This document shows, one piece after another, positions 1,911 through 50,516 of a stretch of DNA of 64,000 bases. The notes below the pieces were generated by a model. That model was not told where the DNA came from and did no database searches. It saw nothing but the letters and a program-made list of their open reading frames with translations. The stretch covers positions 222,518,001-222,582,000 of the forward strand of contig OX597814.1 of assembly GCA_951406725.2 (NCBI GenBank). Reading direction: 5' to 3'. The first letter of the stretch is position 1. The number at the start of each line of letters is the position of its first letter. The position numbers and the translations under genes were made by a program. This stretch comes from Octopus vulgaris (taxonomy: Eukaryota).

Positions 1911-3498
1911 GCCTAATATTTTTAAGAATACAATGACTTTAGTACATTACGGTTGCTTTTCCCTGGAGTTATTTATTTATTTTCTCTGTGTGAAAAGTTG
2001 AGTATCTCAAAAGAAAATATGTTAATTATTTAAAAGAACGTGCGATAAACTTCAGTCAGTGTCAGATTACATTTCAATTAAGATTCGTGTAAAATTTTTA
2101 CTAATTATTTCTTCTTATATATGTGAAGACGAAATGAAATTACATTGATCTTTTTCAATGATAGCATCTAAAATTAAATCTGTGCACCGCTTAAATAATT
2201 AATATCCAGTGTAGAACTACCAGGAAAATAGCTTTGTACATTATAGTGTTACTTGTTGCTTCAGTGATACAAGAAAGTTTTTAAGTTGATCTAAAACTTT
2301 GTTTTTATGATCTTCTCTATTTTCAATATCATGATATATATGGAAAAAAAAACCCCTGAAAATGAGTCGATAAACTGATGGCCTACTTATCAAAAAGTCA
2401 CTGTTTTGAATTCCGTTTCTGATACACTGCTGGAGGCATATTCTCATCGATACAGTTGCAAGTGAGCACTGAATCGGGATATTCCTTCCGATCTATGAAC
2501 CAAATAATACATATAAAATATAAAATATATGCAGGCTGTATTGTGATTGTAAGGTAGTAACAGAAAATTAACCTTCCTGTAATTATTTAATTTATGAATA
2601 AACTGGAGTTGTTTTGGCTTAGCTGTTTTTCTCTCTCCACCCTGGAAAAAAGTCAACGCTACAAACACTACTTCACTTATTTACAGGACTTATTCTGCCT
2701 ACTGCCGTAAATAAGAAATGACTATGAAGACTTAGTGAACTCAGCTGTTATCAAATTATTCGTCATGCATTTAGCTGTTTACTATCAACTTAAAATGTTG
2801 CCGCAGCAACAGGATATAAACTATTGAATGCATTATGCAGAAAGCCATTTGATCACTAATATTTCTAAATCCATATTTAAAAGTAAATGTGTGTAAAGTA
2901 AAAGTGAACTTCCATGGAGTTAATAAATCTACATTATTTGAATTTATCTCTGCAGAAATTTCATTTTACCAGCGTCAATAATAAATTTGAATAAGCAATA
3001 AACGTAATATCAATTCTCCATTCCTGTACATCGAACAGCAAATAATTAATGAGATATAAATTAATATAAATCAAAGTTAAAGGATTCCAGTTCAATTGTT
3101 TAAGCTGCAATACAGCATATATAATATTCGTATCTATAGTGTCAAAATTTCCTCCTCAATGTATTTATTTACGCATATAAAAACTCACGATTCTGAAAAT
3201 TTATTGATGGGTTATGATATAATTCATCCGTAGCTGCAACACTGATTTCTTTAGAAAGAAAATGAGCGTAGTTTTCTTTGGTTTCATGAATAATTAAAAC
3301 ACTATTACAGAAATTATGGATCTATTCATCTATTAAAAAATATTTATCAAAATCCTGAAACATTTTTTACAAACAACTTAGAGTATTTACATGAACGCAT
3401 TCAATGCAAGTAATTCTATGGAATTTCTAATGTAAAGCGAAAAGACCATAGTGTTATATATGTATGCACGTGTGTGTCAGTATATATATATAAAACTG

Positions 3499-3648
3499 TA
3501 AGATAACAAAAGAGAGAAAGAGACCTCGATATTATGTAAATAGAGGGATTTATCTATAAATTTTTTCATAGCATTTTTCCGATGGCCAGATAACTGAAGA
3601 GATGGTGGCGTGGATTTCCACCTCAGCATCCGAAACTCGGAGTTTTAT
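3499..3648 (+). mobile_element. Short microsatellite-flanked element carrying a minimal type I hammerhead motif
   Basis: Bounded by (TA)n on both sides; shares the start TAAGATAACAAAAGA and the hammerhead segment with 37413-37527. Confidence 0.6.
3590..3648 (+). ncRNA. Minimal type I hammerhead ribozyme motif
   Basis: ATAA-CTGAAGA(3594-3600)-GATG...GTGGATTTCCAC...CATC-C-GAAA(3632-3635)-CTC G GAG-TT-TTAT. Stem I ATAA/TTAT, stem II GATG/CATC with one extra C, near-palindromic stem III, predicted GUU cleavage after 3644. Confidence 0.6.
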
Positions 3649-4015
3649 ATATATATATACATATATATATATATACACACGCATATACATATGTGAGAGA
3701 GAGTGTGTGTGTGAGTGTGTGTGTGAAATACATATGTGTGAGAGCTTACATACATATGTAATGTATTCGCGCCCCTTTTCCCACACACACGCAGACACAC
3801 AGTCTCATACACGTTCACTCAAACATATTTATATGTGTGAGTTGGTCTGCTTTTGTGCTATGATTATTCGTTTGAATATTTAATGAAATTTTGTTGAATG
3901 GTGTTATAATTGTCGCGGAGAAAATTAAAAGCAGTAGGACTTTATGTATTTTATATTTTAAAAACCTTGACAACTTTTTCTAATCCGTTTACGCAGCTTT
4001 TATATAACTTCTTGC

Positions 4016-4220
4016 AAGGCTGCAAAGTGGCAGAATCGTTACGGCGCCGGACAAATACCTATGGTTCTTTACGTTCTGAGTACAAAGGTCAACGAGATTG
4101 ACTTTTCCTTTCATCCTTTCGGAGTTAATCAAGCAAGTACCATTTGAGCACTGTGGTCAATATAATCCACTTTCCCTACCTTGAAAATCGTTGAACTTCT
4201 TCCAAAATTAGAAATGATTG
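4016..4220 (+). mobile_element. SINE family C copy (diverged)
   Basis: Similar to 30502-30722 (TGGCAGAATCGTTA...TTACGTTCTGAGT...CCTTTCATCCTTTCGG). Confidence 0.7.
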
Positions 4221-4573
4221 TGCACCTAAATCCTACCAGGATTATAGTTTCTTTTATCCTTTTATAATCTGTCGATAGCTGGGATAAAGTACTGAACTTA
4301 GCTAAATTTTATCCCGGAATTTATTTATGCTTTAGACTGAAAGAACCAAAGGAGAGCTACTGTAACTTTGCAATAGAAGCGCTGACATATCAAACACATT
4401 CTATTTGCAATAAACTAATCGCACTTTAGCGTTTTAGGTATCCACATTTCATAGATAACACTCGGTGTGTAATAAGTGCACAACCTTTTAATCGATATAT
4501 TTATATATATATATATATATACATCTATATATATATACATTTATCTATCTATATATATATACATCTATCTATA

Positions 4574-4617
<44 letters not shown>

Positions 4618-4697
4618 TATATATATACATCTATCTATAGATATATACATCCATTTATCCATATATATATATATACATCTATCTATCTATCTATCCA

Positions 4698-4757
<60 letters not shown>

Positions 4758-5257
4758 ATGCAGTACAGAGTAGTTTTAAATCAATAACTTAGTAATATTT
4801 ACCCACGTTTATAAGCGCACAACAAATCTTCAGAGAAAATTTAGTAAAATATATATTTATACATGTATACATCTTTTCCTCTGATAGAAACGTAATAACA
4901 CTTTGAGTGGGAGATAGATTTTCTAGGAGAAAAAGTTACCGTCTAGATTATTCGGCTGGTAAGTATGTTAAATACTGAAATGGATTATGATTTAGTACGA
5001 GAAGTGGAATGTCTTAAACTGTATCGTAAATCCTTTCCACCAGTATTACATTTAGATTGCCCAAATACATTACTACCTGAATAGTAGTAATGATCATTAC
5101 GTTGAACTTAACTGGGTGCGCATCTATAACATACATTCCAATGTTATAGAATATAAATTCATATGTAACGAACCAATATTGCCTAAAAGAAGAGGAATTC
5201 CAACGGTCACTGGGGGTATTTTAGTTGCATTTGTAATGGCATTAATTTGGTCAGATA

Positions 5258-8912: not shown

Positions 8913-9515
8913 ATATACTTAAATGAAATACGTACAGAAAAAAGATTCTTAATAAACTAAAAATTCACAGTGTACTTTTCTTTTTCTTGTAAGAGCACGT
9001 GGTAAATTCTATATATGGCTGAAACGGAAAGACCAAAAATGGCTTGAAAACCATAACATGCCGGCGGAAAATAGCATCACTAGGTGAGACAAGCTGATCT
9101 GAATTAGCTTCGCCGATTGACAGATGACGGTATCGTTTAGAGAATGCGTGGGCTGAGACTACACGCCTTCATTGGTCAATTAAATTTGAGACAGTGTCAC
9201 CTGACAACTTGCTGGGGCTGTTTGCTGGAGCCTATTTGCAGGTATTTAAAGGACAAATTTTGACAAGACAGTCAGTCGCCCGCTGAAACTCGTTGACGAT
9301 ATATCGAAGAGGCCAGGGAACAAAAGAAAGAAGACATGCACCCAACACCAGCGCTGAAGACACCTCCAAAAGGGGGCGGCGCCACTTCAAAGCGGTAGAG
9401 GCGTAGGGGCCGAAACCGGACGTGGTTCCTGCTGATGATGTCTTGAGCTAACTGGATCCTATAAAGGAGCTGTTGTGGTAGCAGACCACGAAACACGGTT
9501 GAAATACCCCATTAG

Positions 9516-9970
9516 TTAGTCAGCTCGAGCAGATGTCTTCCTGGGGCTATAAACTACAGTAGTATCGTCCCTTATGGGTCAGCCACATTTAGGTGGCAAA
9601 TATACATCACGATTTCGTGTTGCTACTGTTTATATCTCGCTCAGAGTTTTATTATTGCTCGTTTCTACTTTTTCGAGACTGGTGGCTTTTCGCCACTAGA
9701 AAAAGTATATGTATTTGCATTGAGAAATCAATTCTCATCCCCAGCCGTTCGTTGTCACACGCTAATAACAGGTTATTACTCAGAATCTCGGGTCCGTGCG
9801 CATCACGTCAGGCTGGAGATGGGATCGATGATTTCTCTTTGTAAATACTGACAGGGCACAGAAAGTGTGTCATTAGCCATCTGGAGGAGATGTCTTCCTG
9901 GGGCTTTAAACTACAGTGGCATCGTCCCTTATGGGCCAGCCACATTTAGGTGGCAAATATTCTTCACGAT
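9516..9970 (+). mobile_element. ~357-nt hammerhead-bearing unit with terminal redundancy (retrozyme/PLE pLTR-like), copy 1
   Basis: Direct repeats 9516-9613 and 9873-9970 (period 357); colinear with 50091-50478; degenerate hammerhead at 9751-9806; ends at a microsatellite. Confidence 0.8.
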
Positions 9971-34650: not shown

Positions 34651-36934
34651 TAAACTTAGATAAACTTAGATATGTTTCGACCAAAGATTGGTCCAGGCCA
34701 TGTCTAACTTAATAGCACCACCTGATAGGATTATTCGAATCCTGTTTAAGTCAAGTTTTGTTCAAGTAGTGAGTTCTTGTTGGGTGAGTTGTATCCAATT
34801 ATGGGTGGCTTATCTGGTATTCTTTGAAGGAATCTATCCAGACTCTGTTTAAAGTTGATGGGATCCTTTTCCTCTTTGATCTCTCTCGGGACAATGTTAA
34901 ATAGGGCAGAGCCTGTTGAGGAAAAGAAATTATGTTGCAGTGTACATGTATGTTGTGATCTTGAATTGGGCAGGGGACGTATAGCCCGTGGTCCCAGTCT
35001 TGGATGAACCTTGAAGCTAATGTTTAGGTCGTTTGGGCAAAGTTGGCGGTATATTTTCCACATCGTACAAATGATGTACCGCTCACGGCGACGCTGGAGG
35101 GAGTAAAGTTTCAAGGCTTTAAGGCGATCCCAATAATCGAGAGCAGCCATGCCTTCAATGCGTTTAGTGAGTGCCCTCTGGGGTGACTCAATTCTGGAGA
35201 TGTTTTGTCTTGTGTGAGGAGACCACAGTGGGCAGCAGTATTCAAGGTGTGGCCGTACAAAGGAGGAAAAAGTGGTATGATGACACCTTGTTCTCTGGAC
35301 CGGAAAGTTCTTAAGATCCAGGAACTCATCCTACGAGCTATATCGACCTTCTTGTTGATGTGTGCACTCCAACTGAGATCGTCATCAACAATTACACCCA
35401 GGTCTCTGATATTGTTAGAGGCTGTGAGCGGTTCCCCTGAAGGAAGAGAGTATGGCTGTTTTAGTGAGGAGTTTCTTCCAAAATGCATCAGCTCAAATTT
35501 TCCCTCGTTCAGTTGCATTTTGTTTCTGTCTGCCCATTGACTCACAGCATATAGATCAGACTGGAGTTGAGTTCGGTCTGCTTCTTCATTGACGATTTGC
35601 TGGAGCTTGGTGTCATCAGCAAATATTTTCACTTTGCAGTAATGTACGACACTGGAAAGGTCGTTTATGTAGATTATAAAGAGTAGCGGAACCAAGACAG
35701 TCCCCTGGGGGACACCGCTGGTGACTTTTGCTGGGCTTGAGTGGACTCCATCAACTACAACATGTTGTGTTCTATTCGCCAGGAAATACTTGATCCAGTG
35801 TAGAACTTTTCCACGGATTCCAACATTTGCCAATTTAGAGAGTAGGATATTATGGTCTACCCTTTCGAACGCTTTACTGAAGTCAAGATATATGACATCA
35901 GAGTTCGAACCTGTTCCCAAGGCTTTGAGTACATCTTCAATGTGGTGTAAGAGCTGTGTTAGACAGTCCCTGCCACAGCGAAAGCCATGCTGATTTGCAT
36001 TTAGGAGTTTCTGGGTCTCCAGGAAGTCAGCCATCCTTGATCTTAACACTGTTTCAAACACTTTGATGATGTGGGAGGTGAGTGAGATTGGGCGATAGTT
36101 GAGTGCGAGGGATCTGTTTCCCTGTTTGAAAACCGGGATGACTGACTGGGATAGAAACTGTTTTGGTATATAACCTGCATCTAACGAATTTCTCCAGAGG
36201 TTGGTCAGAGGGACTGCAAGTTGGTGTCTACATTCCTTCAGGAGACTAGCGGGGAATCTATCAGGGCCTACAGCAGAGTAGTATTTGACCTCATTTATTG
36301 CTGCTACGATGTCAGTGGGAGTGAAGGTTATGTCTGAGATTTTATGTTGGGAGTCAACTTCGTTCGCTTCTCTTACGTCAATATCAGTGGGAACACTAAA
36401 GACAGAGCAGTATTGTTTCTGCAGTATTTCTGCCATTTCTTTAGCATCGTGTTGGGGAATGCCGTTAGCATCAATTAATGGCCCAATGGGTGAGACAGTG
36501 GTTCTATGCTTATTTGCATAGGAATAGAACACTTTTGGGTTCTGTTTGATGTTTTTGATTACCCACTGTTCCTCCGCAGCTCTTTGGTTTTCAATGGAGG
36601 TTTTCATGTCGTTCTGCAGATGAAGTTTTTCCAGCTCTAGCCTTTTCATTGTTGTTGAACGTGGATGTTGTTTGTGGGAATATTTTAATTGGTTGATTTT
36701 TTTGTTAAGTCTTTTGATGCGCCTGATGAGTGTTTTCTTCTTTTTAGGGAGCCGATTTCTGTTTGTGTTAGTAGATTTCGTGGGAGCGTGTTTAGAGCAT
36801 GTATATGTGACAATGTTTTCAAAGTGCTGCCATGCGGTCTCAATATGGGTGGAATTGAGAGTAAAAGACCAGTCGATGAAAGACAGATCCTTTCTGATTG
36901 CTCCCCAGTCCGCTTTATGGAAGTTTATGTTATC
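34651..36934 (-). mobile_element. 5'-truncated CR1-group LINE
   Basis: RT ORF with YRPISLTS, QHGFR, YLDFSKAF, GVPQG, FADD and IRDLGV motifs; 3' UTR hairpin GACCAA/TTGGTC and (TCTAAGTTTA)2 tail; 5' end truncated into a (TA)-rich tract; endonuclease absent. Confidence 0.93.
34746..36934 (-). pseudogene. LINE ORF2 reverse transcriptase (one frameshift near 35265)
   Basis: Track ORFs 35111-37072 and 34746-35150 join into one RT/C-terminal domain (RPHLEYCCPLW...LYSLQRRRERY) after a frameshift; the N-terminal IY repeats of the long ORF are microsatellite. Confidence 0.9.
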
Positions 36935-36983
36935 ATACGTATTTGTATATATGTATGCATATAAATGTATGTATATATATACG

Positions 36984-37045
<62 letters not shown>

Positions 37046-37088
37046 GGTGAGAAAGTTGGTGTGTGAAAGCACGTGGTTGAATATATAG

Positions 37089-37197
37089 AAAATTGTAAAA
37101 AGTGAAAAAACTACAGAAGGCTTGTTTTAAAAGGTTAAAAAATATATATTTGAGTCATTATGTCTGAAGAATGTTATAAATTTTTTTCCTACAATAT

Positions 37198-50035: not shown

Positions 50036-50473
50036 TCTAAATATGGCTAACCACTAAGGGTGGATGTTAATGTAGCTTGTAGCCCCAATATGGTTAGCCA
50101 TATTTAGATGACAAATATACTTCACATTGTCTTGCAGTTACTGTCTATACCTCATTCAGCGATTTATTATTGCATGTTTAAACTTTTTCAAGATTAGTGA
50201 CGAAAAGTCACTGGAAAAAGGATATAGGTATTTGCATTGGGACCCTTCCATCGAAAACCGGTGATTGTCGTGCGCTGATGACGGGTCAATACCCAGAAAC
50301 TGCAGTCCGTGCGAATCACTTAGGTTGACGAGGGAAGGATGACCTCCCTTTGCAAATACTGATAGAGCATAGAAAGTGTGTCAATAGCCAGCTGGAGAAG
50401 ATGTTCTGCTGGGGCTACAAGCTACAGTAACATCCACCCTTAGTGGTTAGCCATATTTAGATGGCAAATATAC

Positions 50474-50478
<5 letters not shown>
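50036..50478 (+). mobile_element. ~353-nt hammerhead-bearing unit, copy 2, with 35-bp terminal redundancy and 5' inverted arm
   Basis: 50091-50125 repeats 50444-50478 (period 353); 50036-50087 is the reverse complement of 50410-50461; colinear with 9516-9970; flanked by TA-rich and (CA)n tracts. Confidence 0.85.
50260..50320 (+). ncRNA. Type I hammerhead ribozyme
   Basis: GGTGATT-GT-CGTGCG-CTGATGA(50275-50281)-C GGGT CAAT ACCC A-GAAA(50296-50299)-C TGCA G-TC-CGTGCG-AATCACT. Long bulged stem I, 4-bp stem II closed by C.A, palindromic stem III ACTGCAGT, GUC site after 50307. Confidence 0.8.

Positions 50479-50516
<38 letters not shown>

Follow-up and report, generated by a model that had tools for sequence, protein, structure and literature searches.

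Non-LTR retrozymes of animals have been described from coral, mussel (350-390 bp), and axolotl (330/350 bp), and Penelope-like elements (PLEs) have been proposed to mobilize them (PMC7229834). Circles, again with proposed PLE mobilization, are also described in PMC7761336. Vertebrate retrozymes are reported to be non-autonomous PLE sequences, and the Xenopus units are tied to pLTRs by homology (Li, Clavereau, and Pollet, 10.64898/2026.07.22.740005). In the arrangement published for PLEs, tandems are partial, one copy is inverted and 5'-truncated, a tail of 30-40 bp sits at one of the ends, and insertion is biased to microsatellites (PMC8557442, PMC3846280). Copying of a circle for more than one unit was proposed for PLEs in 2014, in the same group of papers (PMC8557442, PMC3846280, PMC4209133). 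The retrozyme class and the rolling-circle/PLE model are already published for coral, mussel, axolotl, and vertebrates. We did not find a published octopus retrozyme family in the literature outside Repbase, Dfam, and the supplements of the key papers. The way in which animal retrozymes and PLEs integrate has been proposed, not shown, and the octopus family described here offers countable genomic evidence on it.

The window is a 64,000-nucleotide stretch of the Octopus vulgaris genome (contig OX597814.1, positions 222,518,001 to 222,582,000). It carries two copies, A and B, of one non-coding unit of about 355 nt. They are 74.8% identical over 393 columns (E 6e-68), and the longest Met-ORF is 45 aa at the copy A locus and 31 aa at the copy B locus. 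Both terminate at unit 1-3, directly past AAATAT.C.TCAC, against microsatellite repeats. Unit coordinates are counted from window position 50126, with the full unit of copy B as the reference. Copy A (9516-9970, plus strand, from alignment) is a single-armed insertion of 1.28 units that runs from unit 258 to unit 3 of the next lap. Its period is 357 nt, and self-alignment places the 98-nt terminal redundancy at 9516-9613 and again at 9873-9970 (89.8% identical). (TA)/(TG) repeats adjoin the 3' junction from 9969. Copy A belongs to the oldest subfamily and is 87% identical to the subfamily consensus. Its type I hammerhead, recognized by its letters and helix pairing, lies at 9748-9806 on the plus strand, with CUAAUAA at 9762-9768, GAAUC at 9783-9787, a UCGG loop, and GUC at 9792-9794. 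This motif is predicted to be inactive and is probably dead because the core has three substitutions.

Copy B is a member of the youngest subfamily (96% to the consensus) and has two arms. The direct arm of 1.1 units (50091-50479, plus strand, from alignment) runs from unit 319 to unit 1 of the next lap but one, with a period of 353 nt and a redundancy of 36 nt at 97.2%. Head-to-head with it, with 3 nt between them, is a 52-nt inverted arm (50036-50087, minus strand, unit 285-336) that self-alignment shows to be 98% identical to the reverse complement of 50410-50461. One full 353-nt unit (50126-50478, plus strand) has 43% G+C and folds much better than its shuffles (z -4.2). The first 50 nt of this unit (50126-50175, plus strand, from mapped ends) form the tail region, an alternative 3' end of the family and the best-conserved part in a 360-nt sister family. 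The type I hammerhead at 50261-50319 (plus strand, from letters and pairing) is intact, with CUGAUGA at 50275-50281, GAAAC at 50296-50300, and GUC at 50305-50307, and cleavage is predicted after 50307 (unit 182). It has a helix I with an internal loop, a 4-bp helix II, and a 2-bp helix III closed by the palindromic UGCA. At the short 3' end, comparison of the subfamilies identified a hairpin with a conserved terminal motif (50450-50478, plus strand), in which a C-G/U-A compensatory pair distinguishes subfamilies. A (CA)n(TA)n microsatellite (50476-50516) forms the 3' junction. We could read no target duplication at copy A or copy B. Both copies are inert. Each has only one hammerhead motif and therefore neither would release a monomer. 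A preliminary description of the window had proposed a shared, ORF-free unit in copies of more than one unit that end at a common point against a microsatellite, and the anatomy above bears this out. It had also taken 50036-50478 as the extent of copy B, of which the tandem part stands and the inverted arm falls outside the tandem, and had placed one type I hammerhead at the same position in each copy, which is right for the position and for an intact core only in B.

Several other elements lie in the window. A 5'-truncated copy of a different repeat family occupies 9007-9508 and ends 7 nt before copy A. This family has 1974 candidates at 88-90% identity and a fixed 3' end, and its other copies reach further 5'. 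The 9007-9508 element has two core-like CUGAnGA...GAAAC pairs (9354 and 9432) without clear hammerhead stems. It was considered as a part of copy A and ruled out, as 14 other copies have no adjacent unit. A core-like CUGAAGA...GAAAC motif at 3594-3645 stands immediately 5' of a (TA)n run, as at the 3' ends of PLEs. On the minus strand, 34749-37126 holds a 671-aa LINE reverse transcriptase frame (RVT_1, E 4e-29).

The family extends across the genome, which was searched as 2.8 Gb in 227 contigs. Sequence searches returned 3188-5150 first-look candidates. A 19-nt motif from the 3' end has 635 exact matches and a 33-nt hammerhead pattern has 299, and the reversed controls have none; thus the motif is not a chance occurrence. 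A lower bound of ~1,700 copies follows from the 635 matches and the presence of the exact motif in 42 of 112 pieces. Random DNA contained one piece in 600 kb (95% range about 120-26,000 genome-wide), and pooled sampling, with three pieces in 836 kb, gives about 2,000-29,000. The family probably totals a few thousand pieces, with wide limits. From 91 full units we distinguished three subfamilies of 353, 356, and 358 nt, mutually 79-89% identical, and a fourth subfamily has a UCGA loop III. Units are 353-358 nt long with 43-44% G+C and longest Met-ORFs of 31-92 aa. The family is not young, since the median identity to consensus is only 89-94%. Remoter relatives of the unit at L385:3257-3740, L416:3232-3599, and L362:3454-3630 are 60-75% identical, and therefore the superfamily has further branches. 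One insertion (L026:2077-2927) contains a 17-copy minisatellite built from 50 nt of the unit (126-176), which correspond to the 5' part of the hammerhead. A hairpin at unit 69-88 (window 50194-50213) has the loop GAAAA in the youngest subfamily and the reverse complement in the older ones, which reads as a loop inversion between inverted repeats.

The ends of the copies were mapped in a sample unselected for length, namely the 84 loci that contain the first 100 matches to the 19-nt motif (of 635). There are two fixed 3' end points, 45 nt apart. Among 130 pieces, the short end accounts for 58 (mostly at unit 1-3) and the tail end for 51 (35-57, mode 45), and 21 stop elsewhere, so that 109 arms are canonical. 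These have a median length of 185 nt and a maximum of 500, and 17 of the 109 attain one full unit. The 5' ends are variable, as in truncation, and not LTR-like. Head-to-head pairs number 70 over all loci. Both ends are canonical in 46, of which 43 pair a short with a tail end, three are short with short, and none is tail with tail (p 2e-10). Tail-to-tail pairs were likewise not found at the 84 motif-sampled loci. In 104 of 237 cases there is a (TA)4 no more than 30 nt from the 3' end, compared with a background of 5.7%. Repeats of 7-14 nt flank 30 of the 84 readable non-microsatellite insertions, compared with 5.9% of shuffled pairs. Among about 290 pieces, sampled with a preference for long copies, ten contain two or three hammerheads each. 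The longest is 1006 nt, or 2.85 laps. No arm with two motifs occurs among the 109 of the motif sample, and long arrays, in which retrozymes usually occur, were not found for the studied subfamilies. This footprint matches the published PLE arrangement cited above. Mobilization of the family in trans by PLE-type machinery is very likely. Clusters of 5' ends at unit 207 and unit 82 were also considered. They are partly alignment artefacts, and remapping to the three subfamily references erased most of the cluster at 207. A cluster at unit 75-94 (11/31), near a hairpin, persists after remapping.

The hammerhead was assigned from the letters of the core, the pairing of the helices, and the conservation of the motif between copies. 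An Rfam search with the motifs of A and B gave no match at the gathering score and, with the threshold relaxed to E<=10, still no hammerhead family. Of 144 complete motifs, 100 have an intact core. None of the 15 core positions differs between the three subfamily consensuses, compared with 76 of 353 positions overall (P 0.024). When the hammerhead and the 3' hairpin are imposed as the structure, 92.6% of cells are paired, and slid controls give 17-49%. For two-sided changes the count of cells exceeds all shuffles and the count of pairs (6) does not (275/500 shuffles), and the covariation traces to few founders (three or four subfamilies). Applied to 30 decayed copies, RNAalifold gave a weak consensus that differs from the hammerhead fold. 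Units folded as circles are much more stable than shuffles (z -4.1 to -6.9), and the minus strand also beats shuffles, less strongly (z -2.5 to -5.5). The unit of about 355 nt carries a type I hammerhead that is predicted to be self-cutting.

Helix III of this hammerhead consists of two pairs and a tetraloop. Loop III is self-complementary in 125 of the 144 complete motifs and, by eye, in 96 of the first 100 of the 299 pattern matches. The self-complementary loop takes four forms: UGCA, UCGA, CCGG, and UCGG. It brings no gain in the monomer fold (-7.6 vs -7.9 kcal/mol), and pairing between two loops would give 8-bp duplexes of -8.9 to -14.9 kcal/mol. In the published account, the geometry of a helix III duplex allows cleavage as dimers and protects monomeric circles (PMC4209133). 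The persistence of self-complementarity in four variants of helix III fits a scheme in which dimers cleave, the product is ligated, and the resulting circle is reverse-transcribed.

The reading that we prefer, and hold to be probable, is that A and B are old insertions of a protein-free repeat, made by a PLE reverse transcriptase and endonuclease acting in trans, probably on a circular RNA of one unit. The initial transcript would come from a rare source copy that, at about 1.6 units or more, holds two hammerheads. Judging from the structure, its two motifs would pair through the self-complementary helix III and cut after GUC, freeing an exact monomer, within which the lone motif would cut poorly. 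A host ligase would then circularize the monomer, as inferred for published retrozymes. Synthesis of cDNA would start at one of two AU-rich points (unit 1-3 or about 42-50), on cut ends in (TA)n and often on both; here the footprint is observed and the enzyme would be that of a PLE. It would travel back on the RNA, pass the cleavage junction unstopped, and end at random. The two arms would be joined head-to-head, and the majority of the products would be dead fragments.

A tandem cluster of five U6 genes lies at G000:C1:139423726-139428422, and these genes share a ATGCAAAT element at about -78 and a TATA at -30. For a U6-type promoter in the unit, the host U6 upstream element would have to precede a TATA box by about 48 nt. 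By eye, the look-alikes in the unit form a stem, are without the required spacing, and differ among subfamilies. Contigs (78-138 per run) from four runs presumed to be RNA contain unit-derived sequence, mostly of the 3' half and with none spanning the stretch, and strand, ends, level, and circles are not readable from contigs.

The strongest alternative, which we regard as unlikely though worth serious attention, is a non-autonomous PLE derivative that is copied from linear, mostly uncleaved read-through RNA of rare 2-3-unit copies. The enzyme would jump between templates, the hammerhead would serve another PLE step, and no circle would form. This accounts for the PLE footprint as well as a circle does. 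The preliminary description took the 1.1-1.3-mers to fit a circular RNA template. A partial tandem is a normal PLE shape too, and therefore is by itself no proof of a circle; the 1.1-1.3-mers are the long extreme of a 5'-truncation series, and what does point, indirectly, to a circle is that 5' ends show no accumulation where the RNA would be cleaved. The tabulation of end phases and copy numbers that it had called for gave two fixed 3' ends and multimers, and most arms are below one unit.

The cleavage site is where the two templates can be compared. It is crossed by 48 of the 109 arms. Of 51 arms at risk, six end within 10 nt of it, at a background hazard of 0.123 (p 0.61), and we found no indel hot spot or scar there. 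A template of cleaved linear RNA would make the arms end about 171 nt from the short end, and they do not. A conserved cleaving motif together with unimpeded passage of its cleavage site is most simply explained by a ligated circle. Seamless crossing is equally expected of uncleaved linear transcripts, and the absent stop is therefore accounted for by the linear alternative as well. Poor cleavage in vitro also favors it: this is reported for PLE hammerheads (PMC4209133), and eight of nine Xenopus retrozyme dimers are reported to be without in vitro cleavage (10.64898/2026.07.22.740005). The autonomous PLEs of this genome have variant cores with palindromic loops (CAUG, CCGG), so that a palindrome is not specific to circles. 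Against a linear template, the canonical core is constant in the three subfamily consensuses and in the 62%-identical sister family, which suggests that cleavage matters. Sources that cleave would give templates ending at the site, where there is no pile-up, and no jump scar is seen at the cleavage site or at either 3' end. Laps within an insertion also resemble each other more than other copies: they differ by 7.3%, compared with 11.0% between insertions (60/66), and the arms of one pair differ by 7.8%, compared with 11.3% (43/48). The laps or arms of one insertion share about three times more non-consensus letters. We read this as one template per insertion, and the shared variants may partly reflect finer subfamilies lumped in the consensus.

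An extension of the circular reading is more speculative, and we think it doubtful. Beyond acting as a cleavage switch, helix III may be a handle that pairs two circular RNAs, supplying a pair of PLE enzymes with a template on either side of a double-strand cut, one primed at the short end and the other at the tail. The family would then be a free-standing lineage of circular-RNA parasites with no pLTR parent left, several radiating families, and a targeting LINE of its own. Two LINE-like 3' fragments that are related to each other (71%) occur at L181:1030-1500 and L225:913-1329; they contain a reading frame and have AATAAA at the end. They are inserted at unit 125-133, just 5' of the hammerhead, with a 9-nt duplication in L181. 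A Pfam search with their short frame gave no match.

It is also conceivable, and very improbable, that the copies are no independent element at all and are 5'-truncated pLTR remnants of a PLE with an ORF, one that is rare, has been lost, or falls outside the sample. Xenopus retrozymes are reported to be related to pLTRs (10.64898/2026.07.22.740005), and the sampling covers about 225 loci out of a family of some thousands, together with about 100 PLE loci. Screening with PLE proteins found no PLE ORF joined to the unit at any of 225 family loci. PLE protein matches occur near the unit at nine of 205 and three of 20 loci, all at least 480 nt away. The two nearest ORF fragments have their own ends, with (TA)n between them and the unit, and five of 60 random 10-kb stretches hold a PLE ORF fragment as well. 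The ORF fragments near these 12 loci are separate insertions. The UCGA-loop subfamily was considered as an ORF-linked form and ruled out (0/18 loci). All long copies run upstream into more unit, up to 2.85 laps, and not into an ORF. The 124 free 5' flanks have no upstream sequence in common beyond two local duplications and one LINE pair, and no common non-unit 5' flank. The preliminary description had proposed a non-autonomous hammerhead repeat of the retrozyme kind, probably served by a PLE in trans, and named as its refutation that every copy be attached to a PLE ORF and that ORF-free multimers be missing. The proposal is sustained by the PLE footprint and the lack of a joined ORF, and ORF-free 1.6-2.85-mers are present.

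A partner was sought with a GIY-YIG family search and two PLE protein searches, over about 100 PLE loci of several families. Intact ORFs with RT and GIY-YIG are present in the genome, in families of 781, 784, and 775 aa and others. No homology of the unit to PLE ends or pLTRs was found in these loci, and five unit-related pieces near them are separate insertions. The 784-aa family also has short and tail ends in (TA)n, two of each among the four copies listed. The names returned by a homologue search with the 781-aa ORF were uninformative. The loci L136:2245-5700, L368, and L407 represent at least three PLE families that are young and have numerous intact ORFs of 775-784 aa. By eye, the 3' ends of these young families carry variant hammerhead-like motifs, which combine a UUGAUAA core with a palindromic loop of CAUG or CCGG.

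A SINE-like or satellite repeat, with redundancy from local DNA duplication and a chance hammerhead-like motif, would suit the missing Rfam hammerhead and the broken core of copy A, and is scarcely credible against the two-phase fixed 3' ends, the inverted arms, the target duplications, the paired cells (92.6% vs 17-49% in slid controls), and the 299 motif matches against none in the control.

The octopus family most closely resembles the non-LTR retrozymes of animals as described in PMC7229834. The two share a non-coding unit, here of about 355 nt with 43-44% G+C and one type I hammerhead per unit, a weak helix III with a palindromic tetraloop like HHR_Amex1/2, a highly self-paired predicted circle, duplications of >4 bp, and coexisting PLEs. 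The family fits the traits of retrozymes (150-450 bp, G+C under 50%, non-coding, duplications >4 bp), and tandems with at least two hammerheads are seen at the family level only, not in A or B. It differs from the retrozymes of that account in the form of its copies, nearly all of which are inversions with two arms or fragments that are truncated 5'; dimers are rare, and the longest copy is 2.85 units. For the vertebrate retrozymes (10.64898/2026.07.22.740005), the conclusion on origin and mobilization is the same, and families with a high share of monomers are reported there too. The difference is that a homologous pLTR was not found for the octopus unit, and the 35 genomes of that study, as presented, are without a mollusc.

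Like EN+ PLEs (Neptune-type), the family has partial tandems, an inverted 5'-truncated arm, a tail of 30-45 nt that may be present at one end, insertion into (TA)n, duplications of 8-10 bp, and a hammerhead near the 3' end (PMC8557442, PMC3846280, PMC4209133). Unlike them, the unit has no ORF, and its canonical core and extended helix I differ from the variant minimal motifs of the PLEs in this genome. To the published model the family adds a PLE footprint on an ORF-free hammerhead unit, arms that run past the cleavage site without stopping, and a helix III loop that is self-complementary in four independent versions. The nearest relative is the 360-nt hammerhead family in the same genome (L343:5483-6986), which is 62% identical over 709 columns (E 1e-52) and 87-95% identical in the tail region. 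The two families share the 3' hairpin, the palindromic helix III, and the two-armed shape. The sister is younger, with 98% identical units in arrays of 3-5, whereas the family of A and B is older and shorter-armed. The age of the latter, at 89-94% to consensus, therefore makes the younger 360-nt sister the better bench system.
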